A stretch of DNA of 64,000 bases, taken from assembly GCA_018817645.1 (NCBI GenBank), contig JAHITK010000003.1, positions 9,922 through 73,921 on the forward strand, in the 5' to 3' direction. A program made the position numbers and the translations under genes. Below, piece by piece: positions 31,272 through 58,185 of the stretch (its first letter is position 1; each line of letters opens with the position of its first letter). This DNA is from Patescibacteria group bacterium (GTDB lineage Bacteria > Patescibacteriota > Minisyncoccia > Minisyncoccales > PEYH01). The notes under the pieces are model-generated. The model was not told the DNA's origin. It saw only the letters and a program-made list of their open reading frames with translations, and made no database searches.

Positions 31272-31820
31272 ATGGAAAAAAAGATAATAACAGGCAGCGA
31301 TCAAAAGACCAGGTCTTTGGCAAAAAGCATGGCTGAAAATTGTTTGAAAACGGGGCTCGGTTTTGTTTTTAACGGCCAAGCAATGATTTTCGCTCTGGAT
31401 GGCAGCTTGGGCAGCGGTAAGACGACTTTTATCCAGGGGTTTGCCAAGGGACTGGGGATAAGAGAGAAAATTTTGAGTCCCACCTTCGTAATTTTGAAAA
31501 GATTCAAAATTACTAAACCCAAAGGCCCGAACCCAACCCGCTCGCAACGCTTCGCGCCGCGATGCGGGCCAGAATCTAAAGCCCTAAGCCCAAAATTTAA
31601 AAATTTTTATCATATTGATTGTTATAGAATAAAGGATTCGCAGGAAATTTTGGACCTGGGCTTTGAAGAAATAATTTCTGACCCGGAAAATATAGTGGTT
31701 ATTGAATGGGCGGACAAAATCAAGGAAGTTCTTCCCAAAAACATCGCGGTTATTAATTTTAAGTTGAAGGATAAAAATATTCGGGAAATTATTATTAAAA
31801 GCGAATATAATTTTGGATAA
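31272..31820 (+). CDS. tsaE: tRNA t6A biosynthesis protein TsaE, carrying an in-frame GC-rich repeat insertion
   Basis: P-loop GSLGSGKTTF, SPTFV, YHIDCYRI motifs. An extra PKGPNPTRSQRFAPRCGPES segment is encoded by the GC-rich element at about 31533-31572. Confidence 0.75.
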   Translation: MEKKIITGSDQKTRSLAKSMAENCLKTGLGFVFNGQAMIFALDGSLGSGKTTFIQGFAKGLGIREKILSPTFVILKRFKITKPKGPNPTRSQRFAPRCGPESKALSPKFKNFYHIDCYRIKDSQEILDLGFEEIISDPENIVVIEWADKIKEVLPKNIAVINFKLKDKNIREIIIKSEYNFG

Positions 31821-32736
31821 AAAACGATTAGTGATAATTGACAGCAATGCCTTGGTCCACCGGGCCTTTCATGCCTTACCGCCCCTTACCTCTCCGAAGG
31901 GAGATTTGGTCAATGCCGTTTATGGGTTTCTTTTGGTTTTTTTGAAAGCGCTCAAAGACCTGCGGCCTGATTGCGTAGCCGCTACCTTTGATTTGCCGGG
32001 CCCCACTTTTAGGGACAAGATATACCAGGAGTATAAGGCAAAAAGGGTGAAGGCGCCGGATGAGCTTTATCTCCAGATTCCGATAACGAAAAGAATGCTT
32101 GAAGTGTTTGGCGTTCCGGTTTTTGAGAAACAAGGATTTGAGGCAGATGATGTGATAGGCACTATCGCCAAAAATGCCAAAAGAAAACAGATAACTCCGG
32201 AAATAGAGATAATCATTGTCACTGGAGACCTGGATGCTTTGCGTTTGGTCGATAAAAATACCAAGGTCTATACTTTGAAAAGGGGCCTTTCCGAAACAGT
32301 GGTCTATGACGAACAGTTAGTGAAAAAGAGGTACGACGGTCTGATACCCGAACAATTAACAGATTACCGCGCCTTAAGAGGGGATCCTTCCGACAATATT
32401 CCGGGCGTGACTGGAATCGGGCCCAAAACAGCCATAGGATTATTAAAAAGATTCGGATCTTTGGACAACATTTACCGGGTAATTGAGAGCGGAGAGAGTA
32501 AGGATTTAATCCCGCTCCGCCTTGAAGAAAAACTTATTGCCTACAAAGAACAAGCGCTCTTCTCAAGGGCGCTGGCGGAAATTAACACTGCTGTTCCGAT
32601 TGATTTTACCCTTGCGCAGTGCCAATGCCGCCCGCTGGACCGGGAGAAAATAATAAAAATTTTCCAGGAATTCGGATTTTACAGCTTGATTAAAAGATTG
32701 CCGGACACGGCGCAGGCAAAATTAGGGGATTTCTGA
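31813..32736 (+). CDS. Standalone 5'-3' exonuclease (Pol I N-terminal/FEN-like)
   Basis: LVIIDSNALVHRAFHA...Y(K)A(K)R motifs. Helix-hairpin-helix region. Confidence 0.8.
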   Translation: MDKKRLVIIDSNALVHRAFHALPPLTSPKGDLVNAVYGFLLVFLKALKDLRPDCVAATFDLPGPTFRDKIYQEYKAKRVKAPDELYLQIPITKRMLEVFGVPVFEKQGFEADDVIGTIAKNAKRKQITPEIEIIIVTGDLDALRLVDKNTKVYTLKRGLSETVVYDEQLVKKRYDGLIPEQLTDYRALRGDPSDNIPGVTGIGPKTAIGLLKRFGSLDNIYRVIESGESKDLIPLRLEEKLIAYKEQALFSRALAEINTAVPIDFTLAQCQCRPLDREKIIKIFQEFGFYSLIKRLPDTAQAKLGDF

Positions 32737-32822
32737 ATTTAATATCAAAAATCCCCCGCGCTTGGCGTAAAATTCCTTTCAAGGCAATAAATTGTTATAA
32801 TAAATGAATTAAACAGATATTA

Positions 32823-33776
32823 ATGACAGAAGTTTTTAAAAGAGAAAGCCAGGTCAAATCGGCTATATTGGAAAATTTGGGAAAAGAAAGAAGGCGGAGA
32901 AAATATATTATTTTGGGAACAATTGCCTTTTTCTTGGCAATAAGATTGGCCATTAAGCCCTTCCCTTACTTTTATTATATTACAGCGGGTTGTTTACTGT
33001 CCCTCTTTTTGATAATTCCGGCTACTCATTATCTCAAAAAGGACTCTAAGATGAAAATAGGAGTCATTCGGCTTATCGTAGGGGCAATAATCTTTATAGA
33101 ACTTTTAACCCTCGGCGCGGTATTATACTTCTTTATGCCGGTGGCTTTATTTTATCAGATGCGCATTTCTATCATCGCCATTCCGTTTTTCCTGCTTTAC
33201 GCCGTCCTGATTTACCCCTTGCTGGTTTCCAGGAAAAGCAACGACCTTTTTTATTTCTTTTCTTTGGTTATGGTGTCGGCTTTGTCGCTGTTGGAATATG
33301 CGGGCCGGTATCCGGACTACTCCCATTATCCCATTTCCGAAGAACCGGCTTTGGCCCTCTATGCGGCAATCATTCCGATTGTCATCGCCCTGTTTATTTT
33401 CTTAACAATGAGGAGTTCAATGAGTCAGTTTTGGGGGCAGTTTAGCAAAATGAATCTGGAACTTAAAGGATTAAATATTGAACTTGAAGAGAAAGTCAAA
33501 GAAAGGACAACGGAACTGCAGAAAAAGTCAGAAGAGCTGGAAGAAGCGAAAAATATTTTAGAAATCAAGGTGGCGGCGCGGACCAGAGAATTGGAAGAAT
33601 CCGCCGAGCAATTGGAGGAAAATATCAAATTGAGAACCAAGGAACTACAAGAGAGAATCGATGAATTAGAGACATTCCATAAGCTTACCGTCGGCCGGGA
33701 ATTAAAGATGATTGAACTCAAAAAGGAAATAGAAGACTTGAAAGAACAATTAATCAGCAGGCAGAAAAATGAGTAA
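32823..33776 (+). CDS. Polytopic membrane protein with C-terminal coiled coil (hypothetical)
   Basis: About 6 TM helices, then heptad-rich E/K/L segment. Confidence 0.35.
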   Translation: MTEVFKRESQVKSAILENLGKERRRRKYIILGTIAFFLAIRLAIKPFPYFYYITAGCLLSLFLIIPATHYLKKDSKMKIGVIRLIVGAIIFIELLTLGAVLYFFMPVALFYQMRISIIAIPFFLLYAVLIYPLLVSRKSNDLFYFFSLVMVSALSLLEYAGRYPDYSHYPISEEPALALYAAIIPIVIALFIFLTMRSSMSQFWGQFSKMNLELKGLNIELEEKVKERTTELQKKSEELEEAKNILEIKVAARTRELEESAEQLEENIKLRTKELQERIDELETFHKLTVGRELKMIELKKEIEDLKEQLISRQKNE

Positions 33777-33788
33777 ATTAGCAAGAGA

Positions 33789-35387
33789 ATGAAAAATAAG
33801 TTTTTTCTGAAAAACAGAAAATTAAATATGGCGCCGGAATACCAAAAAGAGATAGCAAAATTACAGAAAGACCTCAATGAAGCCGCCGCTTATTTGAATG
33901 ATTTTCTGGCTTTTTTGCCTTTGCCGATTTGCGATGTCAGCCCGACCGGAATGGTAAGTAATGTGAACAAGGCCTTTGAAAAATTAACCGGGTTTCGTTT
34001 CAGCGAGGCAATAGGTGAATACTTATCGGGCTTTTTCACGGAACGGGGCGAGATTGATGCCTGTCTTAAGTCGTTAGAAAGAGATAACGCGGCAAAAAGC
34101 GAAGAATTGTATTTAGTCACCAAGGATAAGAAAAAAATACCGGTAAGCGTATCCTTTGCGGCCAAAAGAGACCAGAGAGGGGAATTAACAGGCTATTTTA
34201 TCGGAATCATAGACATTACCCTTTTGAAGGACTTGCAGAGCAAGACCGAGGAAAAAATCAAGGCCAGAACAAAGGACTTGGAGAATTCAAGAACGGCCCT
34301 GCTCAATATGCTCGAGGATACCGAAATGGCCAAGCAGCAGATAGAAAGAGAAAAAAACAGAAGCCAGATAATTTTTAACAATTTTATTGACGGGCTCCTG
34401 ATATTTAATTCCAAAGGAGAACTGGAACTGTTGAATCCGCGGGCAGAGGAATTTTTGAAAGTAAGACAGTCCGCCCTTATTGGAAAAACAATCACTGAAC
34501 TGGCAGAATGGTCGCAGACAATGGATTTGGCAAAAATGCTTGAAAGCAGAAAGAAGGATATCTTCCGAGAAGAGCTTCCTTTTAAAGAAGGAGAATTAGT
34601 GGTAGAGGTTACCACCCAGACATTGAATCCTGGCAAAAAAGACGCTTCAACCCTGGTAATTCTCCACGACATCTCCAGGGAGAAAGTCATAGAGCGTTTA
34701 AAGAGCCAGTTTGTTTCAGTCGCCGCTCATCAATTAAGGACCCCGCTTTCCATTATAAAATGGTCATTATCTATGATTTTGGAAGAAGAAATAGGGCCTC
34801 TTAACACGGAACAGAAAGAAATGTTATCCTGGGCTAATCAGACAAATGAAAGAATGATAAGATTGATTAATGATTTGTTGAATGTTGCCAGAATAGAGGA
34901 AGGAAGGTTTATGTACCGCCCGACCATTATAGATTTCGGCGAACTGGTGGAGTCAATGGTGGCTTCGCTGAAACCGTTGGCCCAAAAGAAAAAAGTAAAG
35001 TTCATTTTTAAAACTTCTAAAACCAAGGCCCCGAAAGTAATCAGGGCGGACATTGAAAAATTGACTTTGGCAATCAAGAATATCATTGAGAACGCCATAT
35101 TTTATACTGATCCAGGGGGCAGCGTTGAGGTTTCTTTAACCAGAAAGAAAGATAAGGTGGAGTTATCTGTCAAGGACAGCGGAATCGGCATTCCTAAAGA
35201 CCAGCAGGACAGAGTTTTTACCAAATTCTTCAGAGCCGACAATGCGGTGCGAAAAGAGACCGAGGGCACCGGCTTGGGCCTATTTATCGCCAAGAATGTT
35301 ATGGAATCCCATAAGGGCAAGATTTCATTCGTTTCCGCAGAGAAAAAGGGCACCACTTTCACCATTTCTCTGCCAGCCATAGGATGA
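33789..35387 (+). CDS. PAS-domain sensor histidine kinase
   Basis: H-box VAAHQLRTPL. N box. G boxes GTGLGLFIAKN. Confidence 0.8.
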   Translation: MKNKFFLKNRKLNMAPEYQKEIAKLQKDLNEAAAYLNDFLAFLPLPICDVSPTGMVSNVNKAFEKLTGFRFSEAIGEYLSGFFTERGEIDACLKSLERDNAAKSEELYLVTKDKKKIPVSVSFAAKRDQRGELTGYFIGIIDITLLKDLQSKTEEKIKARTKDLENSRTALLNMLEDTEMAKQQIEREKNRSQIIFNNFIDGLLIFNSKGELELLNPRAEEFLKVRQSALIGKTITELAEWSQTMDLAKMLESRKKDIFREELPFKEGELVVEVTTQTLNPGKKDASTLVILHDISREKVIERLKSQFVSVAAHQLRTPLSIIKWSLSMILEEEIGPLNTEQKEMLSWANQTNERMIRLINDLLNVARIEEGRFMYRPTIIDFGELVESMVASLKPLAQKKKVKFIFKTSKTKAPKVIRADIEKLTLAIKNIIENAIFYTDPGGSVEVSLTRKKDKVELSVKDSGIGIPKDQQDRVFTKFFRADNAVRKETEGTGLGLFIAKNVMESHKGKISFVSAEKKGTTFTISLPAIG

Positions 35388-35488
35388 TGGTAAAAATAAG
35401 GCATCTGTTATAAAATGAGGATGGGGATTAATGTTTGACAGGGGCTACTAAAAGGTTAAAATAGTAATAGAATTAAATATCAAGAATT

Positions 35489-35872
35489 ATGGCTAAAAAG
35501 ATTTTAATTATAGAGGACGAAGAGCTGCTTTTAAATCTGTTGAAAAAGAAGTTGAGCGAATTGGGCTATGAGGTCTTGGCCGCTGTCGACGGCCTGGAGG
35601 GATTGGAGGCGATTAAGGAGACCGCGCCTGATTTAGTGTTGCTGGATATAGTGATGCCCAAAATGGGAGGATTTGAGGTCTTGGAGAAAAAACAGGAGGA
35701 CGATTCCATTAAAAGTATTCCGGTGATTATTATTTCCAACTCCGGTCAGCCGGTGGAATTAGAAAAAGCGAAACAATTGGGGGCTAAAGATTGGTTGATA
35801 AAAACAGAATTTGACCCCGTGGAAGTGGTGGAAAAAGTTATAAAACAAATTGGAGACAGCAACAATAATTAA
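35489..35872 (+). CDS. Single-domain response regulator (receiver only)
   Basis: IEDEE...DLVLLDIVMP motifs. Confidence 0.8.
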   Translation: MAKKILIIEDEELLLNLLKKKLSELGYEVLAAVDGLEGLEAIKETAPDLVLLDIVMPKMGGFEVLEKKQEDDSIKSIPVIIISNSGQPVELEKAKQLGAKDWLIKTEFDPVEVVEKVIKQIGDSNNN

Positions 35873-35889
35873 GTTGGTTAAGCAAAATT

Positions 35890-36285
35890 ATGCAAGAACA
35901 TATTCTCATAGTAGAAGATGATAAGTTTCTGCGGGAGCTTATCTCCAGAAAGCTTTTAAGCGAGGGATTTAAAATAGATGAAGCGATAGATGGAGAAGAG
36001 GGTCTAAGGAAAATAGAAGAAAGCAAACCGGATTTGGTTTTGCTTGATCTTATTCTGCCTGGTTTGGATGGGTTTGAGGTGTTGGAGAGAATAAAGGACA
36101 ATCCGAGCACTAGTGCCGTGCCCGTGCTTATCCTTTCAAACTTGGGGCAGAGAGACGAGATTGAGAGAGGATTAAAACTGGGGGCGGTTGATTTCTTGGT
36201 AAAGGCGCATTTTACGCCTGAAGAAATAGTGGAAAAGATTAAAACTATTTTTGAAAAGAAACCCGCTGCCAGCCAGAGCGAATAA
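35890..36285 (+). CDS. Second single-domain response regulator
   Basis: VEDDKF...DLVLLDLILPGLDGFEVL. Confidence 0.8.
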   Translation: MQEHILIVEDDKFLRELISRKLLSEGFKIDEAIDGEEGLRKIEESKPDLVLLDLILPGLDGFEVLERIKDNPSTSAVPVLILSNLGQRDEIERGLKLGAVDFLVKAHFTPEEIVEKIKTIFEKKPAASQSE

Positions 36286-37281: not shown

Positions 37282-37542
37282 TTATTTCTGCCTTAAAATT
37301 CGGGCAATACTGGATTTTTTTCTGGCCGCCGTGTTTTTTTTGATAACATTTTCTTTTGCCGCCTTGTCCACTATTTTATAGAATCGAGGGAGCAATTCAT
37401 TTGCCTCCTTTGTTTTATTTTCTTTTTTCAGAGAAAGGATTTGTTTTTGCAAGTTCTTAATGGTTTTTTTATAGCGCAAATTAGACGCTCTGTTTCGGCG
37501 TTCTTGTCTTAGAGATTTGATGGCTGATTTTGTGATAGGCAT
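37282..37542 (-). CDS. rpsT: 30S ribosomal protein S20
   Basis: MPITKSAIKSLRQERRNRASN... Confidence 0.85.
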   Translation of the reverse strand: MPITKSAIKSLRQERRNRASNLRYKKTIKNLQKQILSLKKENKTKEANELLPRFYKIVDKAAKENVIKKNTAARKKSSIARILRQK

Positions 37543-37545
37543 GTT

Positions 37546-37672
37546 CGCTCCCCGCCCGAGGCGGGTTCGCTCAAGTTAAAAATTAACCCGCCTGCAACGC
37601 TTCGCAAGCGAGCTTGCTCGCGCCCGCCGGCAGCGATGCAACAGTTTCGGGCAGGCAGCGAGGCGGGCAGGA
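37546..37672. repeat. GC-rich composite palindromic element (family A) immediately upstream of rpsT
   Basis: Contains GCGAGCAAGCTCGCTTGCGAAGCGTTGC flanked by CCCGCC/GGCGGG arms. Near-identical copy at 39826-39910. Related copies at 58128-58185 and 31533-31572. Confidence 0.65.
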
Positions 37673-37804
37673 AAGGTAAAACTAAAAATGAAAAACAAAA
37701 CACTTCTTGTGATTGATACAATATCACACCCTTTGTTTTTTTTCAAGTTTTTCAAGCCCGAATGGTTGAAAATAAGCGGGGAATAGGGTAATATTAAAGC
37801 GGAT

Positions 37805-38107
37805 ATGAAAAAAATACCTCAATTTTTGCAGAAATATTTTTGGGATGTGGATTTTTCAACCGTGGACAAGAAACAGCATTCTCAGTTTGTTATTGAGAGG
37901 ATTTTAGAGTACGGAGACAAAAAATCAATTAAATGGATGAAAGACAATTTTTCTTCAGAAGAAATTAAAAAGACCCTTTCTGTTTCTAAAAATCTTTCGC
38001 GAAAATCAGCCAATTTTTGGCAGCTTATTTTCGGTTTAGATAAGGATAAAATTCTATGCCTGAAGAAATCATTTCAAAAAAAACACAGAGCAATTTGGAG
38101 ATATTAA
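37805..38107 (+). CDS. Hypothetical small protein upstream of and overlapping an AbiEii-like gene (possible cognate partner)
   Basis: ORF only. Overlaps the next gene by 52 nt in another frame. Confidence 0.3.
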   Translation: MKKIPQFLQKYFWDVDFSTVDKKQHSQFVIERILEYGDKKSIKWMKDNFSSEEIKKTLSVSKNLSRKSANFWQLIFGLDKDKILCLKKSFQKKHRAIWRY

Positions 38108-38673
38108 AAAAATCCTGTTTGATTGCCGGTTTTTATCTTGCTGGTGGCACCGGGTTGGCTTTATATTTAAATCACCGCCTCTCTGTTGATTTAGACTTTT
38201 TCAGCGAAAAAGAATTTAATAGTAAGCCTCTGCTTCAAAAGATTAAAAAATTAGGCAAATTTTCAGTCGCCAAGGAATCAGAAAATACTTTGGCGGGCGT
38301 TTTTAATGGCACAAAAATCGCTTTTTTGGCATACGATTATCCCCTTCTTTTTCCGTTGAAAAAACTTGGCAACATTAATGTCGCTGATATAAGAGAGATC
38401 GCTTGTATGAAAATTTCCGCGATTTCTTCGCGCGGCAGCAAGAAGGACTTTATTGATTTATACTTTATTTGCCAGCAGGGCATTTCACTAAAACAGGCAT
38501 TAGCGCTGTTTGAAAGGAAATACAGGGGTATTCATTATAATATGGTGCATATTTTGAAAAGTTTGGTCTTTTTTGACGATGCTGACAACGAACCCCTGCC
38601 AAAAATGTTGGTTCCTGTTACCTGGAAACAGGTTAAGAAATTTTTTCAAGAAAAAGTAAAAATGAATCAATGA
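38056..38673 (+). CDS. AbiEii/AbiGii-family nucleotidyltransferase (type IV TA toxin-like)
   Basis: LAGGTGLALYLNHRLSVDLDFF motif (GGTAL...R.S.DLDF). Confidence 0.6.
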   Translation: MPEEIISKKTQSNLEILKKSCLIAGFYLAGGTGLALYLNHRLSVDLDFFSEKEFNSKPLLQKIKKLGKFSVAKESENTLAGVFNGTKIAFLAYDYPLLFPLKKLGNINVADIREIACMKISAISSRGSKKDFIDLYFICQQGISLKQALALFERKYRGIHYNMVHILKSLVFFDDADNEPLPKMLVPVTWKQVKKFFQEKVKMNQ

Positions 38674-39239
38674 TTTCTTTTATTAGGGGCAAAATAAAAG
38701 CAAAAAACGGAGAATTTGTTATTGTTGAAAACAATGATATTGGTTTTAAGGTTTTTGTTTCTCCGAAGACCCTGGAAAAATTAAATCCGAGCGAGATTAC
38801 AGAGTTTTTTATTTTTTTTGCCGTTCGCAACGAAAAGCCGGAATTATACGGGTTCCTGACGCCGGAAGAATTAAAAGTTTTTGAAATTATAGAAAAGGTC
38901 TCTGGCATCGGCCCCAAAGGAGCAATGCTTATTGCTTCATTGGGAACATTTGAAGAACTTAAAAAAGCGATAGAAATTCAGGACTTTGGATTTTTCTCCA
39001 AAATTAAAGGAATCGGGAAGAAGAAAATCCAGAAGGTTATCCTGGAATTGGGCGGGACCATAAAAAGAATTGAAGAAATGGAGAACAAAAGTTCTCAAGA
39101 AGACGAGGCCTTTAAGGGTTTGCTGGCTTTGGGTTTTTCCCCAAAAGAGGCGAAAGAAGCGCTGGCGAATGTGCCGAAGGAAGTAAAAGACATCAGCCAG
39201 AGAGTCCAGCAGGCATTGAGACAGTTCACAAAAAAATGA
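38670..39239 (+). CDS. ruvA: Holliday junction DNA helicase RuvA
   Basis: MISFIRGKI...OB fold, HhH region GIGPKGAM. Confidence 0.85.
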   Translation: MISFIRGKIKAKNGEFVIVENNDIGFKVFVSPKTLEKLNPSEITEFFIFFAVRNEKPELYGFLTPEELKVFEIIEKVSGIGPKGAMLIASLGTFEELKKAIEIQDFGFFSKIKGIGKKKIQKVILELGGTIKRIEEMENKSSQEDEAFKGLLALGFSPKEAKEALANVPKEVKDISQRVQQALRQFTKK

Positions 39240-40603
39240 TGAAGAGAATTATAAAAAAGATTATCCCGCCATTCTTTCTAAACTGGTATTACCAGTTTTT
39301 TCCTCTATTAGGCGCTGTCTGGTATCGCTTTCCCTCAAAAAAATTAGTGGTAGTCGGGGTGACCGGCACTAATGGCAAGTCCACGACAATTCAGCTGGTC
39401 TCGGACATTTTAAGGCAGGCCGGGCTCAAAGTCGCTTCTCTTTCTTCAATCCGTTTCCAAACAGGAGATAAGCTATGGCAGAACAAGCTCAAAATGACGA
39501 TGCCCGGCCGGCTTAAACTTCACCATTTTTTAAGAAAAGCGGTCAACAGCGGATGCCAATACGCTGTGCTGGAAGTGACCTCTGAAGGAATCAAGCAGTG
39601 CCGCCATAAATTTATCGATTTTGACGCAGCCATTTTCACCAATTTAGAGAAAGAGCATATTGAGTCGCATGGCTCGTTTGAAAAATACCGGCAAGCCAAA
39701 GGAAAATTGTTTCAGATGCCGGGCCTCAAATGCGCGATAGTGAATTTAGACGATGCGCAGGCTGATTATTTTTTAAGTTTTCCAGTGAAAGAGAAGTGGG
39801 GATACACAGTAAATCCAAAATCCAACCCGCCCGCCTCGCTCCCTGCCCGAAACTGTTGCATCGCTGCAGGCGGGCGCGAGCAAGCGAGCTTGCGAAGCCT
39901 TGCGGGCGGGAATGCCAAAATGGAAAATCAGGATTTGAAAATTGTGGAGGGGGAGGAAGTGAATCTTTTTGAGGACCATTCGGAATTTTCTGTCAGCGGG
40001 CAGGAATTCTCCATTCCGTTAGTGGGAGAGTTTAATGTTTACAACGCTTTGGCCGCTGTTTCTTTTGGGCTGTCGCAGGGCCTAAATTTAGACATTATAG
40101 CAGAGGCCTTAAAGAAGACAGCAGGGGTTCCGGGCAGAATGGAATTCGTGATAAAAGAGCCGTTCCGGGCGGTGGTTGATTACGCCCATACCCCCAAAGC
40201 GCTTGAAAATGTCTACCAAACACTTTCCCTTGGAAAGCAACAGGACGCTAAAAAGAAATTAATATGTGTTTTGGGTTCTTGCGGCGGGGGCCGGGATAAA
40301 TGGAAGCGGCCGGTATTTGGAGCCCTGGCCGGCCAATATTGCGACAAAATTGTTTTAACCAATGAGGACCCTTATGACGAGGACCCAATTCAAATTATTG
40401 AGGCGATTGAAGCAGGGGTTCCTCAAAATGCCGATTATGAGAAAATTTTTGACCGGCGCGCGGCGATTAAGAAAGCATTATCTTTGGCTAACCCCGGAGA
40501 CACAATCGCCATTACCGGTAAAGGAGGCGAGCCCTGGATTTGTGCGGCAGGCGGGAAAAAGATTCCCTGGGACGACCGGCAAATAGTCAGGGAGGAGATG
40601 TGA
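39236..40603 (+). CDS. murE: Mur ligase, MurE-like, with in-frame GC-rich repeat insertion
   Basis: VVGVTGTNGKSTT, DYAHTPKAL. Extra segment NPPASLPARNCCIAAGGREQASLRSLAGGN encoded by the family-A repeat at 39826-39910. Confidence 0.7.
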   Translation: MMKRIIKKIIPPFFLNWYYQFFPLLGAVWYRFPSKKLVVVGVTGTNGKSTTIQLVSDILRQAGLKVASLSSIRFQTGDKLWQNKLKMTMPGRLKLHHFLRKAVNSGCQYAVLEVTSEGIKQCRHKFIDFDAAIFTNLEKEHIESHGSFEKYRQAKGKLFQMPGLKCAIVNLDDAQADYFLSFPVKEKWGYTVNPKSNPPASLPARNCCIAAGGREQASLRSLAGGNAKMENQDLKIVEGEEVNLFEDHSEFSVSGQEFSIPLVGEFNVYNALAAVSFGLSQGLNLDIIAEALKKTAGVPGRMEFVIKEPFRAVVDYAHTPKALENVYQTLSLGKQQDAKKKLICVLGSCGGGRDKWKRPVFGALAGQYCDKIVLTNEDPYDEDPIQIIEAIEAGVPQNADYEKIFDRRAAIKKALSLANPGDTIAITGKGGEPWICAAGGKKIPWDDRQIVREEM

Positions 40604-42288: not shown

Positions 42289-43238
42289 TGAAAATACCAG
42301 ACATCTATAATTTAGCTCTTCAGATGGGGACAGCCGCCGACCTTAGAGGCAAAGAGGCGGTAGAGAAATTTTTAAGCAAAAAGCAGCGCGATTACGAAAA
42401 GCTTTCTGAAAAGGAAAAGCAGAATTTCGATCTGGAAACGCTTAAAAATCCTTATTCTGATTCTCGGATTTTAAATGTATCCGAAGATAAAGAGATAAAA
42501 AGGATTTTAGTCGGGATAGATATAGAACCGGCCGAGCTTTTGCTGGCGAGAGAAATCGGGAATATTGATTTAATTATTTCTCATCATCCATTGGGCAAAG
42601 CGTTAGCCACTCTCCACGAAGTAATGGAGCTTCAATGCGAAGTTCTTTCCCAGTACGGCGTTCCGATAAACATAGCCGAGGGGTTGATGAGAGAGAAAAT
42701 ATCAGAGGTGGCTCGGGGTTTGAATAAGTCCAATTCCGAAAGAACGGTTGACGCAGCCAAGCTTTTGAAATCCAATTTAATTTGTCTCCATACGATTTGC
42801 GATAATCTGGCCGCGGATTTCCTGAAAAGAACTATTGAAAATCAAAAGCCGGAAACAGTGGGAGAGTTGTTGGATATTATCGAAAAGATTCCCGAATATA
42901 GATTATCAAGTAAAAACGGAATCGGGCCCAAGATTTTTGTGGGCAAGAAAGACAATCATTGCGGGAAAATTGCTTTTACCGAGATTACCGGAGGCGCAGA
43001 GGGTTCTTCAAAACTTTATGAAAAAATGGCGCAGGCAGGAATCGGGACCATTGTCGGAATGCATGTTTCAGAAGAGCATAAAAAAGAAGCGGAATCAGCC
43101 CTTATTAATATGGTGATAGCCGGGCATATGCCTTCTGATTCTTTGGGCGTGAATCTCTTTTTGGATGAGTTGGAGAAAAAAGGAATTGAAATTATTCCGT
43201 GTTCCGGCCTGATCAGAGTTTCCCGCATTAGTCATTAA
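42288..43238 (+). CDS. Nif3-family (YqfO/YbgI-like) dinuclear-metal protein
   Basis: RILVGIDIE...DLIISHHP motif. Confidence 0.5.
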   Translation: MKIPDIYNLALQMGTAADLRGKEAVEKFLSKKQRDYEKLSEKEKQNFDLETLKNPYSDSRILNVSEDKEIKRILVGIDIEPAELLLAREIGNIDLIISHHPLGKALATLHEVMELQCEVLSQYGVPINIAEGLMREKISEVARGLNKSNSERTVDAAKLLKSNLICLHTICDNLAADFLKRTIENQKPETVGELLDIIEKIPEYRLSSKNGIGPKIFVGKKDNHCGKIAFTEITGGAEGSSKLYEKMAQAGIGTIVGMHVSEEHKKEAESALINMVIAGHMPSDSLGVNLFLDELEKKGIEIIPCSGLIRVSRISH

Positions 43239-43245
43239 TCCCTTG

Positions 43246-43280
43246 CCCGCCTCGGATGGGTCTGCCCGCCTCGGGCGGGA
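43246..43280. terminator. Tandem GCCCGCCTCGG(A/G)(T)GGG hairpins after the Nif3-family gene
   Basis: gcccgcctcggatgggtctgcccgcctcgggcggg. Confidence 0.5.
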
Positions 43281-47401: not shown

Positions 47402-47584
47402 GTCCCTGTGGTTCAACGGCCCGCCAAAATTTGCCCTCATAGTTTAACGGACAAAACACAGGCCTCCGGAGCTTGAAATACAGGTTCGATTCCTGTTGAG
47501 GGCATAAGCAAAATTTAGGCGGGTAAAATAAAATGCCTCCCTCCGGAGGAGGAAATGGCTGTTCGAATCAGCCCAGGGACACAT
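47402..47584 (+). ncRNA. tRNA-Arg(CCG)-like gene split into a 5' part (acceptor + D-loop) and a 3' part (anticodon arm + T arm + acceptor) by a 121-nt insert that contains a complete tRNA
   Basis: 5' GTCCCTG-TG-GTTCAACGG and 3' CCTCC-CTCCGGA-GGAGG-AAAT-GGCTG-TTCGAAT-CAGCC-CAGGGAC-A. Ends are perfectly complementary. The insert is closed by a CCCGCC/GGCGGG helix and flanked by AAAATTT direct repeats. Confidence 0.45.
47433..47504 (+). tRNA. tRNA-Arg (anticodon CCG), CCA not encoded
   Basis: Hand-folded cloverleaf. Acceptor GCCCTCA/TGAGGGC, D stem GTTT/AAAC, anticodon stem CAGGC/GCTTG with loop CTCCGGA, T stem ACAGG/CCTGT with loop TTCGATT, discriminator A. Confidence 0.8.
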
Positions 47585-52082: not shown

Positions 52083-52093
52083 CATTAAACGCA

Positions 52094-52117: not shown

Positions 52118-52124
52118 AAATCCA

Positions 52125-53495: not shown

Positions 53496-53513
53496 ATTGT
53501 TGATAGATATTTC

Positions 53514-53537: not shown

Positions 53538-53577
53538 CTTTTTACCAAACAAAGAGATGTGATAAAATGAATTCAAT

Positions 53578-54549
53578 ATGATTAACCAGGAATTGGCAAA
53601 TATCTTATACGAAATCGGTTATTTTCTGGAAATGGAAGAGGCCGCTTTCAGGCCTCAGGCCTATGAGAAGGCGGCGATTGTTCTGGAAAATTCAGAAGAG
53701 AGCGTGCGCGATATTTATAATAGAGGCGGGATTAAAGCGTTGGTTGCAATGCCCGGGATAGGAGAAAGCATTGCCAAAAAAATCGAGGAGTATCTTAAAA
53801 CCGGGAAAATTGAATATTATGAGAAATGGAAAAAGAAAGTGCCGGTTGACATTGAAGGACTAATGGCCGTGGAAGGAGTGGGGCCAAAGACAATCCGGAT
53901 TTTATATGAGGAGCTCGGGGTTACTGACAGAAAGGAGCTGGAAGAGGCGGCGATGAACCATAAAATCTCTCCTCTTTTTGGATTTGGCAAAAAAAAGGAA
54001 GAAAATATTCTGCAAAGCATCGCCCTTTTGAAAGCCAAAAAAGAAAGATTCCCTTTTGAGAAAATTTTTCCCACCGCCAGAGACATTAAAACCAGATTAA
54101 ACTCTTTAAAAGAGGTGAAGAAGATTGATTTGGCCGGCTCTTTGCGCCGGAGGGAAGAGACAATCGGCGATATCGATATTTTAGCGATGACTTCGCGTCC
54201 GGAAAAAGTGGTGTCCTTTTTTATTAATCTTCCGGAGGTAGTGAGAATCTGGGGCAAGGGCAAAACCAAGGCCTCTGTCCGTTTAAGACAGGGCATAGAC
54301 GCGGACTTAAGAGTTATCCCGGAAATCAGTTACGGCGCGGCTCTCCAGTATTTCACCGGCTCCAAAGAACACAATGTGGCTTTGAGAAAAATAGCCATTG
54401 AAAAAGGAATGAAACTCAATGAATACGGGCTTTTCAAGGGAAAAAGAAGGGTGGCCGGCCGGCGAGAAAAAGACGTTTACGCCGCCCTCGGTCTTCAGTG
54501 GGTTTCGCCTGAATTGAGGAAAGGAAGGGGCGAAATAGCGGTTATTTAA
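53578..54549 (+). CDS. Family X DNA polymerase (Pol beta-like core, no PHP domain)
   Basis: HhH motifs, GSLRRREETIGDIDIL nucleotidyltransferase motif, YGLFKG. Confidence 0.75.
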   Translation: MINQELANILYEIGYFLEMEEAAFRPQAYEKAAIVLENSEESVRDIYNRGGIKALVAMPGIGESIAKKIEEYLKTGKIEYYEKWKKKVPVDIEGLMAVEGVGPKTIRILYEELGVTDRKELEEAAMNHKISPLFGFGKKKEENILQSIALLKAKKERFPFEKIFPTARDIKTRLNSLKEVKKIDLAGSLRRREETIGDIDILAMTSRPEKVVSFFINLPEVVRIWGKGKTKASVRLRQGIDADLRVIPEISYGAALQYFTGSKEHNVALRKIAIEKGMKLNEYGLFKGKRRVAGRREKDVYAALGLQWVSPELRKGRGEIAVI

Positions 54550-54620
54550 AATAATTAGATTTAAGTCCTTTTATTTGTTATGATAAAGATATTAACCATT
54601 AATAATTAACTAATACGCAT

Positions 54621-56582
54621 ATGAGATATAAGAATACAAAAATAGCAATAGTTTCCTTACTGTTCTTTTTCGCTCTTGGGGGCATAGCGTCTGCCCAGGA
54701 ATCCTGCGCTTCTTTATATGAACAACACGGAACTATTATTAACAGATATGACAGCGACCAAAACGGAAAAATATCCCTTCAAGAATCAGATGCCGCTGTT
54801 TCGGCTTGGTTTGAATACGCCTGGACAGACAATGATTTGCTGGGATTATTAAAATTTGCCAGGCAGGGGTGTGTTATCCCGTCTCTTGAGAATGATCCGG
54901 TATCCGGAACGCTTTCCGCTTCTGCCATCCAGGTAAATATCGGAGAGACAATTGTGCTGACCGTGACCGGCAAAGATAATGACGGCTTACAGAATCTTTG
55001 GGCCTATTATCAAGGAAGTTGGCACAATAAGCCGGTGCAAGGGGAGGCAGCAGACACCACTTTTACTTTTTCAGAATCAAAAGCCGGGACCTATGTTTAT
55101 AAAGGATATATCTATGGGAGCCAGCCCACTGGGGTCAAAGAAACTGCCTGGACCACTCCCCAAGAGGTGAGAGTGGAGGTTTTGCCGGCAACGGTTGTTG
55201 ATTGCCATTATTATTATTGGTTTGACGATGATACGCCCGCTTGCGGTTATAAACAATTTTGCGGTGCGTATGTCTATTATGGACTAAGAACCTTTGCCAC
55301 TCAACAAGAGTGTGAAGAGGCATTGCCGGAAACTCCCTCGGAGAATAATCTTGTTTCCGGAACCTTATCTGTTTCTGCTGCGCAAGTAAGCCCCGGGGAT
55401 GATATTACTTTAACTGTTACTGGACAAGATAATGATGGATTATATGCTTTATTGGTTTATTATCAGGGACAATGGTACAAAAAATTAGTCCAGGGCACGA
55501 CGGCCAGCGCCACCTTTACTTTTTCGGAATCCCAGCCAGGGGTTTATACCTATTTTGGATATGTTTACGGCAAAACGCCAGGCGGCAATTTAGAGTTTAA
55601 TTGGACCGAGCCGAAAATAGTGACAGTTAAAGTTCAAAGCAGTCAGGTTGCTGGAGGTCCGGATTTGATTATTTCTTCAGTAAGCACGAGCCCGAGCTCG
55701 CTCACCATTGCAGACGATGTTGATTTCAAAGTGACTATCAAGAATATTGGCACGCAGCAGTTGCCGGTTGTCTCAAGCGGAATTATCACAAAAGTTTCTT
55801 CAAGCTCTATGGAAGGATCTGGCTGGAGAATATGCGACGCAATGACCACCCAACTCAAGGTAGGCGAAAGCGCAACCATCGATTGTCCGATTGTGCAGAG
55901 ATTATCAAAAGGAAGCCATAATTTCACATTTTTAGTGGATTCGTCCTATCGCTTAGCAGAAGGTAATGAGAATAACAATGAATTTTCAAAAACAGTCAGC
56001 GTCGGGGGCGGGACAATAGTTAATAATGATGTGGTGTCAGGAACATTTGCAGCCAGCGCGGCGAATGTTAATGTCGGTCAATCATTTACTCTTACAATAA
56101 TAGCCCAAGATGACCAGGGAGTGGAGAAAATAAAAATGTATTATAAAGGGGCGTGGCGTACTTTTGACTGCGGAGGACAGACATCCTGCACTAAGAGTTC
56201 TGATTTATACGAGTCAACGGCCGGAACCTATACATATTATGCCATAGTTTATGGGTACGATTTAAACGGCAATTCAGAGAATAACAACACCAGCCCCCCT
56301 TCAATGAGGGTCGTGGTCAAGCAGGCCGGCAATTGCGCGGAAACAGACGGGGGGAAGGATTATTATACGAAAGGCACAACAACAAATATTATCACTGATG
56401 GAGGACTTTCTTTGAGCAGTTGGACTGATATTTGTCTCAAAGACAACCAAACCGCTTTAGCCGGCCAGGAGAATTATTTGTTTGAAGCGTATTGCGACGA
56501 TAATGGAATAGGCCGGCTGATGTCGGGGCCAACCGCTTATATCTGTCCGAAAGGATGTCAAAATGGGGTATGTATTAAATAG
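54621..56582 (+). CDS. Secreted multi-repeat protein with CARDB-like domain and Cys-rich C-terminus
   Basis: Signal peptide. Three about 115-aa repeats (VSGTLSASA.QV..G..I.LTVTG.DNDGL...YYQG.W). DLIISSVSTSPSSL...KNIGTQ fits CARDB. Confidence 0.5.
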   Translation: MRYKNTKIAIVSLLFFFALGGIASAQESCASLYEQHGTIINRYDSDQNGKISLQESDAAVSAWFEYAWTDNDLLGLLKFARQGCVIPSLENDPVSGTLSASAIQVNIGETIVLTVTGKDNDGLQNLWAYYQGSWHNKPVQGEAADTTFTFSESKAGTYVYKGYIYGSQPTGVKETAWTTPQEVRVEVLPATVVDCHYYYWFDDDTPACGYKQFCGAYVYYGLRTFATQQECEEALPETPSENNLVSGTLSVSAAQVSPGDDITLTVTGQDNDGLYALLVYYQGQWYKKLVQGTTASATFTFSESQPGVYTYFGYVYGKTPGGNLEFNWTEPKIVTVKVQSSQVAGGPDLIISSVSTSPSSLTIADDVDFKVTIKNIGTQQLPVVSSGIITKVSSSSMEGSGWRICDAMTTQLKVGESATIDCPIVQRLSKGSHNFTFLVDSSYRLAEGNENNNEFSKTVSVGGGTIVNNDVVSGTFAASAANVNVGQSFTLTIIAQDDQGVEKIKMYYKGAWRTFDCGGQTSCTKSSDLYESTAGTYTYYAIVYGYDLNGNSENNNTSPPSMRVVVKQAGNCAETDGGKDYYTKGTTTNIITDGGLSLSSWTDICLKDNQTALAGQENYLFEAYCDDNGIGRLMSGPTAYICPKGCQNGVCIK

Positions 56583-56595
56583 AAAGGAGCGATTT

Positions 56596-56637
56596 TAAAA
56601 ACCTAAAAACCCGCTTCGGGCGGGTTTTTAGGTTTTT
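56596..56637. terminator. Long bidirectional hairpin between convergent genes
   Basis: AAAAACCTAAAAACCCGC-TTCG-GGCGGGTTTTTAGGTTTTT. Confidence 0.7.
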
Positions 56638-56656
56638 AATAATCAATGATTACTAA

Positions 56657-57004
56657 TCATTTAATCGCTTCTTCGATGATTTTTTCAAATATTTTTGGCT
56701 GTTTCTGGGCCAGTTGAGCCAAGATTTTTCTGTCTATGGCGATGTTTTTTTTCTTGAGAGCGCCCATTAATTTGCTGTAGGAGATATTTTGTTTTCTGGA
56801 ACCGGCATTAATCTGGGTCTGCCACAGCTGTCTTTTTTCGCGCTTTCTCACTTTCCGATCCCTATAATTATAAGACAGGGCATGGAATAATGCTTCTTTG
56901 GCCAAAGCATATCTGTTTTTTCTGCCCCAGCGGAATCCCTTGGTTTGTTTTAACAGGTTTTTCCGGCGCTGGTGGGCTGATGTTCCGCGTTTTACTCTTA
57001 CCAT
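56657..57004 (-). CDS. rplT: 50S ribosomal protein L20
   Basis: MVRVKRGTSAHQRRKNLLKQTKGFRWGRKN... Confidence 0.9.
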   Translation of the reverse strand: MVRVKRGTSAHQRRKNLLKQTKGFRWGRKNRYALAKEALFHALSYNYRDRKVRKREKRQLWQTQINAGSRKQNISYSKLMGALKKKNIAIDRKILAQLAQKQPKIFEKIIEEAIK

Positions 57005-57005
57005 A

Positions 57006-57212
57006 TTATATAGACATCAATTTTTTAATTTTTTTGGATTCGGATTTTGGTAATTCCACCCATCTCCTTTTCTCTTGTATCTGTTTTCCTGATTTTTTTG
57101 ACCGGAAATGGTTTTGCCCGGTCGCTTGGCGCAAAATCTTCCCGCTTTTGGTTAGTTTAAATCTTTTAGCTAACGACTTCTTTGTCTTCGCCTTTTTTCT
57201 TTTCTGCGGCAT
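57006..57212 (-). CDS. rpmI: 50S ribosomal protein L35
   Basis: MPQKRKKAKTKKSLAKRFKLTKSGK... Confidence 0.85.
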   Translation of the reverse strand: MPQKRKKAKTKKSLAKRFKLTKSGKILRQATGQNHFRSKKSGKQIQEKRRWVELPKSESKKIKKLMSI

Positions 57213-57726
57213 TTTTTTGTCCTCGTTTAATAATAAGAATTAATATGTTTGGCAATTTCTTCGGAGGCAATTCGGTTTCTATCGGGATTTGGCTCCCTAA
57301 TATTTCCACGAATTTCTTTATTTGCTCATCAGCGTGCGGGCGCAACGCTTTTTCGCGCCCCCTTAATCGCAACTCCACCTTGATTTTATTCCCCTGTTTC
57401 AAAAATTTGTATGCTTGATTTGCCTTGATTTCTATATCGTGCGGAGAAGTATTGAATTTTATCCTCACTCCCTTGATTCCTCCGCCCTTTTGATGGGATT
57501 GTTTTTTCTCTTTCTTTTTCAATTGATAAAGATATTTTCCATAATCGCCTATCTTGCATATTGGGGGAGAGACCTTGTCTGTAATCTGTATTAAATCTAA
57601 ACCGCGCTCGGAAGACATTTTGAGCGCTTGTTCCAGGGATACTATCCCCACCTGCTTATCGTCTTCGTCAATTAATCTTACCTCTCTTACTTTTATTTGA
57701 TGGTTTAATAACGGTTTGCTCTGAAT
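57166..57726 (-). CDS. infC: Translation initiation factor IF-3; probable AUU start at 57726 (the ORF track shows only the GTG-internal part from 57651)
   Basis: Upstream in-frame extension encodes IQSKPLLNHQIKVREVRLIDEDDKQ, the canonical IF3 N-domain. The first in-frame codon is ATT with no ATG. C-terminal domain IKFNTSPHDIEIK...LRLRGRE. Confidence 0.7.
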   Translation of the reverse strand: MQSKPLLNHQIKVREVRLIDEDDKQVGIVSLEQALKMSSERGLDLIQITDKVSPPICKIGDYGKYLYQLKKKEKKQSHQKGGGIKGVRIKFNTSPHDIEIKANQAYKFLKQGNKIKVELRLRGREKALRPHADEQIKKFVEILGSQIPIETELPPKKLPNILILIIKRGQKNAAEKKKGEDKEVVS

Positions 57727-57755
57727 ACTTTTATAATTACTGATTTTAATTTTAG

Positions 57756-58131
57756 TGGAGATGGCGGGATTCGAACCCGCGTATAGGAAGGCGTTTGAAC
57801 TGTTTCTACAAGCTTGCCTTGATTAGTGTTGTCGGATAGGGGCCTCGAATCAAGGAAAACGGCTCCTATCTTAGGCCTGTTTTAGCAATCCTTCCCGGCC
57901 AATGAAGAACCGCTTATCTCGATAAATTACACCGGTCTTGCTTATCGAGAATCCGCAAAACAGATGGGCGTTGATTATTGCTAATCAAGCGCCGACCATG
58001 GCGTTATGCGTAAGCATAAGCCGGTCTTTGAAATAAGTTGGCACTTATTTGATTCTTGGAAGTTTAACCAGGTTCCAAGAACTGGGCTTGCGCAATTCAT
58101 CAGCTGTTTCCTATCGATGCCTTTCACCCCC
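57756..58131 (-). ncRNA. ssrA: tmRNA (ssrA), CCA not encoded
   Basis: 5' GGGGGUGAAAGGCAUCGAUAGG (tRNA-like 5' half) pairs with 3' CAUCUCC-A including a G3:U70 wobble. T arm GCGGG-UUCGAAU-CCCGC. Length about 376 nt. Adjacent to smpB. Confidence 0.75.
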
Positions 58132-58185
58132 GCCCGCATCGCTACGCGAGCAAGCTCGCTTGCGAAGCGTTGCGGGCGGGCCCGT
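58128..58185. repeat. GC-rich family-A repeat abutting the tmRNA 5' end
   Basis: cccgcccgcatcgctacgcgagcaagctcgcttgcgaagcgttgcgggcgggcccg. Confidence 0.6.

Follow-up and report, generated by a model that had tools for sequence, protein, structure and literature searches.

A near-invariant GC-rich hairpin repeat of CPR bacteria, located beside a small GIY-YIG nuclease gene and in frame within murE and tsaE

Results

Hairpin repeats in the window

The window, as we call the whole stretch of 64,000 nucleotides that was analysed, contains four copies of a GC-rich palindromic repeat (Table 1). Copy C lies between the gene for an 81-residue GIY-YIG protein and the tmRNA gene, copy A lies upstream of rpsT, and copies B and D are located within the genes murE and tsaE. 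All four had been described in an earlier note on this DNA and were recovered where it had placed them or within a few bases, and their GC content (69–78% against 41.8% for the window) is as striking as it had been called.

Copy C folds into a near-perfect hairpin (dG −43.6 kcal/mol, z = −6.9 in comparison with shuffled sequences), ends in CCCGCC and GGCGGG, and does not differ from the consensus derived from about 30 copies in other genomes. The reverse complement of copy A is 92% identical to copy B over 85 nt (blastn, E 2e-25), and the 36-nt 3' part of copy C (58145–58180) matches A with 97% identity (E 2e-9) and B with 92% (E 1e-7). In copy A, a further stretch of about 32 nt is nested in the 5' arm of the canonical hairpin, as locus L067 makes visible. 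Copy D gives only a weak blastn match (19–21 nt, E about 0.02). On the opposite strand, it equals copy C minus the apical 16 nt; it has the same architecture as the 36-nt short form of L055 and L056, with which it shares 31 of 36 positions. A covariance model built from copies of other genomes scored C with 86.5, A with 36.1 and B with 28.6 bits, and D, which was among the 14 seed sequences, with 34.7 bits (E 3.5e-5). No significant match beyond these four was found when the model was run over all 64 kb. The A/B alignment and the model scores confirm that the copies align beyond low-complexity GC.

The region by rpsT, previously taken as one element at 37546–37672, does hold the repeat but proved to contain two things, a 15-nt mini hairpin and the 85-nt copy A. 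The mini hairpin, which shares its termini with the large one, is missing in a syntenic relative. It and the similar mini hairpins elsewhere in the window score 11–14 bits in the covariance model and are individually not significant. An ORF of 72 amino acids (37509–37727, minus strand) traverses copy A; it presumably arises because the repeat contains no stop codons, and we do not count it as a gene. Decayed copies like the half-copy next to copy C are found in the equivalent spacer of four other loci (L004, L045, L052, L070).

Table 1. Hairpin repeats, related elements and associated genes in the window.
Feature	Position	Strand	Description
Copy C	58129–58180	+	Canonical 52-nt hairpin, CCCGCCCGCATCGCTACGCGAGCAAGCTCGCTTGCGAAGCGTTGCGGGCGGG
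Copy A	37587–37671	−	85-nt long form; divergent intergenic region upstream of rpsT
Copy B	39826–39910	+	85-nt long form; in frame in murE, codons 197–225
Copy D	31537–31572	−	36-nt short form, apex deleted; in frame in tsaE, codons about 89–101
Degenerate half-copy	58191–58212	−	CCTCGCCCATATCGCTACGAAG, 5'-arm-like; spacer between GIY-YIG stop codon and copy C
Mini hairpin	37551–37565		CCCGCC-CGA-GGCGGG, 15 nt; by rpsT
Further mini hairpins	26804–26818, 43265–43279, 59076–59090		CCCGCC-NNN-GGCGGG
104-nt insert	47420–47523	+	Bounded by CCCGCC(AAAATTT) and (AAATTTA)GGCGGG
tsaE	31272–31820	+	Host gene of copy D
murE	39236–40603	+	Host gene of copy B
tmRNA gene	57753–58131	−	Rfam RF00023, 100.3 bits; 5' end abuts and overlaps copy C
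GIY-YIG nuclease gene	58235–58480	−	81 aa, single domain; putative hairpin partner
smpB	58480–58929	−	149 aa; named by position and length, as PF01668 SmpB genes in related loci

In-frame copies in murE and tsaE

Copies B and D are in frame, as had been claimed, and so, without exception, are the genic copies of other genomes (L001, L016/L032, L025, L030, L043, L065, L066). The peptides quoted for them are also correct (MurE residues 197–226 and TsaE residues about 88–104). As neither 52 nor 85 is divisible by three, keeping the frame must have involved selection of compensating changes. In comparison with its orthologs, murE has gained 85 nt and lost 7 nt of a AAATCCAAAATCC tract, a net change of +78 nt. 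The 52-mer is open in five of its six reading frames, and deletion of 52 nt from the genic copies gave a longer ORF in no case. Because all are in frame and deletion restores no longer ORF, the genic copies are, judged by their sequences, translated and not spliced out.

Both inserts are located at loops, in agreement with the earlier prediction. In the AF2 model of MurE, residues 196–230 are the sole segment with a pLDDT below 50 and lie between the strands 186–192 and 234–244. In TsaE, about 29 residues stand in place of residue 70 of the Thermotoga maritima protein (6N9A_E), between two aligned blocks. In L065 the same TsaE loop contains a degenerate copy in forward orientation, and in L066 a copy in reverse orientation. 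The possibility of a native loop was checked with relatives: the MurE orthologs P0002 and P0004 (79–81% identity) and the TsaE orthologs P0243, P0246 and P0257 have no insert, and the DNA of the syntenic relative (L047/L048) lacks both copy B in murE and copy A upstream of rpsT, which suggests that A and B are recent insertions. The gene directly downstream of murE is rtcB.

The smpB, GIY-YIG and tmRNA genes

The start codon of the GIY-YIG gene overlaps the stop codon of smpB. Residues 1–69 of the encoded protein are covered by the Pfam GIY-YIG domain (2.8e-16), and its sequence matches in the PDB are the UPF0213 proteins BH0048/EF2693 and SLX1. AF2 predicts one compact domain (pLDDT 93), for which Foldseek gave UPF0213 and Slx1 as best matches, I-TevI being a weaker structural match than either. 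Neither Pfam nor the AF2 model revealed a DNA-binding domain, so that the protein comprises the catalytic domain only. Copy C abuts the tmRNA gene, as noted before, with an overlap of 3 nt (58129–58131), which read CCC on the plus strand and GGG, nucleotides 1–3 of the tmRNA, on the other.

Eight homologs of the GIY-YIG protein, picked from eight lineages by protein similarity alone, all belong to loci that run smpB, GIY-YIG, hairpin, tmRNA, infC; in each, the hairpin reaches the 5' GGG of the tmRNA. The distance between hairpin and nuclease gene is 12–76 nt in these and in the window. Among loci ascertained by the hairpin, 10 strong GIY-YIG matches are found at most 225 nt from a hairpin, while two-thirds of the hairpin copies have no GIY-YIG gene nearby. 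The gene is flanked by the hairpin on one side only and the relative orientation is variable, both orientations occurring at the tmRNA site. No transposase gene was seen beside any hairpin copy. As no promoter-like site was found between the GIY-YIG and tmRNA genes, their co-transcription is suggested.

Distribution and conservation of the hairpin

A scan of one genome per species revealed 30 copies with 0–4 mismatches across all 52 nt, 18 of them exact, figures biased to conserved copies by the exact 21-nt core used in the scan; copies ascertained by protein vary at the apex. According to the record titles, the genomes belong to Saccharibacteria, Nealson-, Komeili-, Falkow-, Gribaldo-, Buchanan-, Moran- and Magasanikbacteria, Parcubacteria and Paceibacterota. 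Besides the 52-nt reference, there are apex-deleted forms of 36–45 nt and nested or apex-expanded forms of 85 to about 110 nt. Between lineages, hairpins are 94–100% identical, compared with 59–68% over the initial 120 nt of the tmRNA next to them. This near-identity of the repeat despite the divergence of the tmRNA points to a sequence-specific partner. Neither covariation within the hairpin nor an Rfam family matching it was found, and no flanking or target motif shared among copies is visible. The contexts of L031 and L064 resemble mis-joins at the repeat.

At three tRNA sites (L010, L035, L036) the insert is exactly 52 nt long and there is no target-site duplication; the filled and empty sites of the window are too diverged to exclude one of 2 nt. 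In this the repeat departs from a classical MITE, whose terminal inverted repeats are flanked by such a duplication. The comparisons characterise the four window copies as members of a family of DNA palindromes of the CPR/Patescibacteria, hairpin repeats of a REP-like or MITE-like kind.

tRNA genes

Other copies of the hairpin are located in tRNA D-loops. The tRNAs bearing them are truncated duplicates next to intact genes, and removing the hairpin restores no tRNA. Some modules in other genomes consist of a tRNA 5' fragment, the hairpin, the GIY-YIG gene and an intact tRNA, in that order. In the window, a tRNA-Arg(CCG) (47402–47419 and 47524–47582) is split in the D-loop, just past GG, by the 104-nt insert listed in Table 1, which itself carries an intact tRNA-Arg(CCG) at 47432–47505. 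Removal of the insert yields a 77-nt tRNA-Arg as predicted by ARAGORN. We tentatively assign this insert to the hairpin family.

Discussion

We consider it probable that the nuclease recognises the hairpin and is coupled to its spread. All the lineages examined have one well-preserved copy in the gap that separates the 81-residue GIY-YIG gene from the tmRNA 5' end. By analogy with Ssn and RAYT proteins, the form in which the nuclease would recognise the hairpin is probably single-stranded or extruded DNA; the nuclease may also cause the spread and homogeneity of the repeat, or at least be linked to both. Further copies would insert without target duplication, with a preference for tRNA-like DNA (the D-loop, the tmRNA 5' end) and for the vicinity of older copies. 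A copy that enters a protein gene would survive only if it is in frame, has no stop codon and lies in a surface loop; such copies would be transcribed and translated, adding 12–30 disordered loop residues to MurE and TsaE. The interaction of nuclease and hairpin, the copying mechanism and any host benefit are what we infer here, and mobility of the repeat is likewise proposed from comparison of sequences.

The reading of the earlier note, a MITE- or REP-like selfish element tolerated in proteins, is supported; its word ‘selfish’ stays an interpretation, because repeat and nuclease may be domesticated. New beyond that note are the spread across CPR lineages with an almost invariant 52-nt core, the small GIY-YIG partner and the tRNA-like preferred sites.

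Among the closest precedents is the Ssn family with its NTS/SRM hairpin repeats, which is reported to be enriched in symbionts (Chenal et al., 2025, Nat Commun; PMC11893778). These nucleases have a single GIY-YIG domain; hairpin repeats flank their genes and, in the form of single-stranded DNA, are bound and cut by them. NTS are reported to lie inside genes in only 2% of cases, and that paper makes no mention of CPR, tRNA, tmRNA or in-frame insertion (PMC11893778). Our protein resembles Ssn as a single-domain GIY-YIG protein of fewer than 100 residues (81, the criterion being <150) whose gene adjoins a 20–50-nt hairpin repeat dispersed in the genome, here with four copies in 64 kb. CPR bacteria are episymbionts. 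However, the SRM consensus HGTCWYN(0-2)YYVSBRHN(0-5)WNVSBRGN(0-2)RNCYNB had no match on either strand of the window or the 52-nt consensus, and the nearest solved structures are UPF0213 (BH0048) and Slx1, not an Ssn. Further, the CPR gene has its constant place between smpB and ssrA and a hairpin on one side only, and the hairpin enters tRNA D-loops and, in frame, protein-coding genes. Ssn cleavage is strand-specific, while the CPR hairpin is variable in its orientation to the nuclease gene.

In-frame palindromic inserts are known as Rickettsia palindromic elements (RPEs; PMC10969869). Like the CPR repeat, they interrupt, within a reduced genome, housekeeping genes that are unrelated to one another, and are read through as additional peptide segments. 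RPEs are about 150 bp long, AT-rich and specific for one genus, while the CPR element is 36–85 nt long, GC-rich and near-invariant across lineages; the two thus differ in length and composition. REP/BIME sequences with their IS200/IS605-like RAYT share with our family the short imperfect palindromes, many dispersed copies, the lack of target duplication and a nuclease gene that is present once and has the repeat at its flanks. REPs can have a stabilising effect on the mRNA upstream of them. They differ in having an HUH/Y1 transposase of the IS200/IS605 type instead of a GIY-YIG nuclease and a terminal GTAG or CGTC tag, which the CPR hairpin lacks, and REPs (20–40 nt) are extragenic by definition, whereas copies B and D are intragenic. 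Partial likenesses are seen in free-standing GIY-YIG homing endonucleases such as T4 SegB, which also lie beside tRNA genes but have a DNA-binding domain and at least 200 residues in comparison with the 81-residue catalytic domain alone, and, grouped with them, in mitochondrial GC clusters, GC-rich palindromes which occur in a genome otherwise rich in AT and can be in frame.

The repeat might be a MITE without a transposase of its own, moved by an unrelated, unseen one, its adjacency to the GIY-YIG gene reflecting a shared preference for tRNA and tmRNA genes, which are frequent targets of mobile elements. The many copies distant from any GIY-YIG gene and the missing DNA-binding domain would fit, but all protein-ascertained lineages show the close adjacency, neither a transposase gene nor a target-site duplication was detected, and the Ssn example shows that a protein with a lone GIY-YIG domain is able to recognise such repeats. 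We regard this explanation as unlikely.

The GIY-YIG gene is in a conserved operon-like position and therefore may serve tmRNA or SmpB biology. On this view the hairpin would primarily be an RNA or DNA signal of the operon formed by smpB, GIY-YIG and ssrA, serving to stabilise the upstream mRNA at its 3' end or, as a processing site, to release the tmRNA, with the dispersed copies as accidental by-products. The position kept at the tmRNA 5' end, the suggested co-transcription and a hairpin far better conserved than the tmRNA agree with such a role. Both orientations at one site are odd for a sequence-specific RNA signal, however, and there is neither covariation nor a matching Rfam family. Decayed older copies accumulate just upstream, and the copies in tRNA D-loops and protein loops are left unexplained; we judge this role rather improbable as the origin of the family.

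Removal from RNA like an intron, for example by cutting and RtcB re-ligation, so that proteins and tRNAs are made without the hairpin, was suggested by its presence in tRNA D-loops and essential genes and by the position of rtcB, but is very improbable, as every genic copy preserves the frame, taking out 52 nt breaks ORFs, and the tRNAs are truncated duplicates beside intact genes that removal does not restore. Native low-complexity loops or assembly artefacts, to which the hypervariability of the host loops among orthologs and the two apparent mis-joins might point, are hardly credible for one nucleotide sequence shared by unrelated genes, intergenic DNA and RNA genes in many independent assembly projects, and missing from close orthologs.

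Small CPR genomes tolerate a GC-rich palindrome within enzymes of cell-wall synthesis and tRNA modification. For annotation, the repeat matters in that it splits Pfam matches, gives rise to spurious ORFs and hides tRNA genes; it can also cause mis-assemblies.

As a more speculative extension of the nuclease–hairpin account, which we put forward as possible but doubtful, hairpin and nuclease may constitute a CPR-wide, undescribed system acting on single-stranded DNA. One form would be a hairpin transposon, the first driven by a GIY-YIG protein; its targets would be tRNA-like genes, at the D-loop or the 5' end, and it could bring replacement tRNAs with it, such as the nested tRNA-Arg at 47402–47582. 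In the other, domesticated form, the hairpin would mark loci (tmRNA, tRNAs, essential genes) and thereby control which imported DNA naturally competent CPR cells recombine. Either role, if true, would account for the near-invariant sequence across lineages. The constantly neighbouring GIY-YIG protein, a catalytic domain only, makes the pairing cheaply testable by biochemistry. If the pairing is true, it would provide a new nuclease specific for single-stranded DNA, together with its site, usable as a tool; it would tie dispersed palindromes to tRNA and tmRNA loci, and would extend the Ssn/hairpin principle to a new sequence class and to a major uncultured radiation.

Hairpin copies in the window

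Four copies of a GC-rich hairpin, termed A to D, are present in the window (see table); reading of the sites and repeat search bore out the repeat family claimed by the earlier note. GC content of the copies is 69–78%, compared with 41.8% for the window. The last 36 nt (3') of copies A and B match copy C (58145–58180) at 92–97%. Copy C folds into a 10-bp GC stem that continues past a U-U mismatch with 4 bp and past an A-A mismatch with 7 bp, up to a 6-nt loop (dG −43.6 kcal/mol, z −6.9). The adjoining tmRNA starts with the final three G residues of this hairpin. A covariance model, seeded mainly with copies from other genomes but with copy D as one of the 14 seed sequences, gave exactly four significant sites in the 64 kb (86.5, 36.1, 34.7 and 28.6 bits). 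At gathering thresholds, Rfam returned the tmRNA and one tRNA and no other family; copy C gave nothing beyond sub-threshold generic miRNA-hairpin matches.

Features of the window and contexts of the hairpin in other genomes (loci with L numbers)
Feature	Locus	Position	Strand or orientation	Remarks
Copy A	window	37587–37671	reverse	85 nt, upstream of rpsT; reading and repeat search
Copy B	window	39826–39910		85 nt, in murE; 92% identical to A (blastn E 2e-25)
Copy C	window	58129–58180		52-nt hairpin abutting tmRNA
Copy D	window	31537–31572		in tsaE; equals C without apical 16 nt when read on the other strand
Mini hairpins	window	26804, 37551, 43265, 59076		15 nt, CCCGCC-NNN-GGCGGG
tmRNA	window	57753–58131	minus
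GIY-YIG gene	window	58235–58480	minus	81 aa, between smpB and copy C
Split tRNA-Arg(CCG)	window	47402–47582		insert 47420–47523; inner tRNA 47432–47505
AT-rich repeat	window	3698–3746, 8693–8838, 19956–20138, 27543–27572, 39806–39825, 60490–60538, 60736–60770		AAATCCAAAATCC / GTCAAATGTCAAAT
48-nt unit	window	26780–26827, 59052–59099		88% identical; weaker at 43222–43269
91-nt inverted repeats	window	3665–3755 / 8748–8838		77% complementary
134-nt direct repeat	window	88–776		three copies, 66–88% identity
23-nt hairpin	window	59945–60635		CAACGAGACCCGGCCTCGTTG; three copies, two identical, one inverted
DUF6922 / AbiEii pair	window	37805–38673		adjoins copy A
tmRNA context	L004, L034, L045, L052, L055, L057, L063, L070		forward
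tmRNA context	window, L069, L005, L050, L059		reverse
Dus-like gene	L025
miaA	L043
381-aa ORF	L030
Membrane protein, N-terminal tail	L016, L032		forward
Membrane protein, N-terminal tail	L027		reverse

The copies in murE and tsaE are insertions

The 27–28 extra residues of the window MurE are missing from orthologs at 79–81% identity, and the insert is also absent from three TsaE orthologs (P0243, P0246 and P0257), as expected for insertions rather than native loops. A syntenic relative (L047/L048) has the gene block holA, rpsT, DUF6922/AbiEii, ruvA, murE, rtcB; its DNA lacks the murE copy, the copy upstream of rpsT and the 15-nt mini hairpin by the rpsT start. Compared with relatives, murE has gained 85 nt and lost 7 nt in an AAATCCAAAATCC tract; the loss offsets the gain to a net 78 nt, which indicates that selection has restored the frame. 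The tsaE position is also occupied in the sister lineage (L065), by a decayed copy in forward orientation, and in a distant lineage (L066), by a short-apex copy in reverse. The tsaE loop is a recurrent landing site.

That both inserts lie in loops was likewise confirmed. MurE as modelled by AF2 (mean pLDDT 81.9) drops below a pLDDT of 50 in a single segment, residues 196–230, which lies between strands 186–192 and 234–244. A stretch of about 29 residues in TsaE stands in for residue 70 of Thermotoga maritima TsaE, between two aligned blocks.

The DUF6922/AbiEii pair beside copy A, apparently a toxin–antitoxin pair, is kept in syntenic relatives without the hairpin. In the relative carrying ortholog P0002, the AbiEii-ruvA-murE block is preceded not by holA and rpsT but by a bAvd and reverse transcriptase pair resembling a diversity-generating retroelement (L049, 1–1392).

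Distribution and insertion sites

Searching one genome per species for the 21-nt core GAGCAAGCNNGCTTGCGAAGC gave 46 loci. The whole 52-mer was found at about 30 of these with 0–4 mismatches, exactly in 18, all in CPR MAGs of many named lineages and a few labelled Bdellovibrionales. The Bdellovibrionales (L002, L031, L039) and Spirochaetota (L057) labels may reflect mis-binning, and the remaining core-only matches, in high-GC genomes, appear to be due to chance. An exact-core scan is biased to conserved copies; the 31 unconstrained positions are nearly invariant too. In pairwise comparisons, hairpin identity is 94–100%, against 59–68% for the first 120 nt of the adjoining tmRNA. No viral contig matched the core pattern, and a phage vector is thus not indicated. 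The 30-aa peptide translated from the region of copy C was compared with 1.84 billion representative proteins; the single match was a spurious one to a repeat-rich protein without the hairpin peptide, and this census was discarded, its 17-aa signal being too short for the method. The family is CPR-wide, and neither a full-text literature search for nucleotide and peptide strings nor a CPR-focused search found a published description.

Three kinds of site are occupied. At tmRNA genes the 5' GGG immediately adjoins the hairpin, which occurs there in both orientations. In tRNA genes the hairpin lies in the D-loop, after G18-G19, of a 5' tRNA copy that is truncated, and an intact copy of that tRNA comes next; these inserts are exactly 52 nt long, with no target duplication. 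All the protein-gene copies (L025, L043, L030, L016, L032, L027 and others) preserve the reading frame and add a net 54 nt.

Four alternatives were considered: an RNA signal of the operon, excision at the RNA level, an unrelated transposase and an artefact. The strongest rival is the RNA signal, given how well the location at the 5' end of the tmRNA is conserved. Compensatory pairs were looked for in the hairpin family and none was found; the structure therefore rests on the palindrome itself alone, and conservation acts at the sequence level. As for excision, deletion of the 52 nt from the genic copies gave a longer ORF in none, and the 52-mer is open in five of its six frames; together with the in-frame position of the copies, this argues for translation of the element and against its excision. 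A D-loop ‘intron’ was likewise dropped, as deleting 52 nt (±3) restored no tRNA, save in the doubtful L031 case. We conclude that the window element is a recently inserted, translated palindromic repeat.

Nested and minimal forms

Locus L067 consists of the canonical 5' arm CCTGCCCGCATCGCTAC, a 32-nt insert resembling a mini hairpin and the canonical remainder, a layout which implies that in copies A and B one hairpin is nested within another. Long forms are rare, with only L067 and L068 added by a metagenome scan for a 22-mer specific to them. Nested and tandem copies, together with the mini hairpins, point to the CCCGCC and GGCGGG termini as the essential ends.

A 104-nt insert interrupts a tRNA-Arg(CCG) gene after the GG of its D-loop. 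The insert has CCCGCC-AAAATTT and AAATTTA-GGCGGG as its inverted ends, each about 13 nt long, and holds a different, intact tRNA-Arg(CCG). ARAGORN lists only the inner gene; removal of the insert leaves a clean 77-nt tRNA. Further inserts with CCCGCC...GGCGGG boundaries were sought systematically in tRNAs; only this nested tRNA-Arg and trivial duplicates turned up.

Other repeats are also present. Tracts of a second, AT-rich repeat family often surround or adjoin hairpin copies. This second family is in frame in proteins too (for example EIQNPNVKCQIKSKIPISN in the KsgA/RsmA-like ORF 3385–4239) and encodes the K/S/Q/N-rich linkers of MurE and TsaE orthologs. The 48-nt unit has TAATCA/TTAAT-rich flanks around the mini hairpin CCCGCCTCGGGCGGG; 59071–59091 scans as terminator-like, though no gene ends there. 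The 91-nt inverted repeats bracket a 5-kb segment that includes the most GC-rich kilobase of the window (7001–8000, 53% GC) and may be a bounded insert. The 134-nt direct repeats have smaller internal inverted repeats, and ORFs at the 23-nt hairpins encode GGYRGDQ-like repeats.

A GIY-YIG nuclease gene accompanies the repeat

A GIY-YIG gene is the constant partner of the repeat. In the window its product is a single GIY-YIG domain (Pfam 2.8e-16), with UPF0213 protein BH0048 and the nuclease domain of Slx1, a structure-specific endonuclease, as nearest solved relatives (35–37% identity, rmsd 2.2 Å) and I-TevI behind. Eight homologs picked by protein search only (62–95% identity) all show smpB, GIY-YIG, hairpin, tmRNA and infC; among the loci ascertained by the hairpin, the family HMM gave 10 strong matches within 225 nt of it. 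In a second arrangement (L002, L028, L033, L064, L068), a tRNA 5' fragment, the hairpin, a tRNA stretch from nucleotide 20 to about 33 and the GIY-YIG ORF are followed by an intact tRNA-Glu or tRNA-Gln.

The arms of the hairpin are constant and its apex varies, from a 36-nt short form (L055) to about 110 nt (L052), with 1–4-nt indels in L069 and L070. In the spacer, decayed half-copies lie immediately upstream of the intact one (window 58191–58212; L004, L045, L052, L070) and suggest repeated insertion at one place. No promoter-like site was found between the GIY-YIG and tmRNA genes in the window.

After smpB, GIY-YIG and hairpin, L031 (~4137–4470) and L064 (~900–1000) continue into a tRNA fragment or a second GIY-YIG, not tmRNA; scaffold Ns lie near the L031 locus. 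In both contigs the assembly has probably been mis-joined at the repeat, which is a hazard in practice for MAGs from CPR.

Mechanism and relation to known systems

We propose that a REP-like hairpin repeat would be recognised by the adjoining single-domain GIY-YIG nuclease. Recombination between the 10-bp inverted terminal arms would flip the interior with length and frame unchanged, and could account for both orientations at identical sites.

The Ssn proteins are the direct precedent for the proposed pairing of hairpin and nuclease. These single-domain GIY-YIG proteins (~94 aa) bind and cut hairpin repeats (NTS/SRM) as ssDNA only, are encoded by genes flanked by their repeats and modulate natural transformation in Neisseria; their authors liken the gene/repeat arrangement to RAYT/REP (PMC11893778). 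However, the published SRM consensus has no match in the window, and the paper is silent on CPR, tRNA, tmRNA and in-frame insertion (PMC11893778); we therefore do not file the window system as an Ssn member. Rickettsia palindromic elements show the same in-frame behaviour as the window repeat. The system belongs to the hairpin-repeat-plus-nuclease kind and is not categorically new.

The order smpB, 81-aa GIY-YIG, hairpin, tmRNA, infC-rpmI-rplT is kept across diverse CPR (window 57753–58929; L050–L063, L069, L070). Fixed in the trans-translation locus, the nuclease may have a role there.
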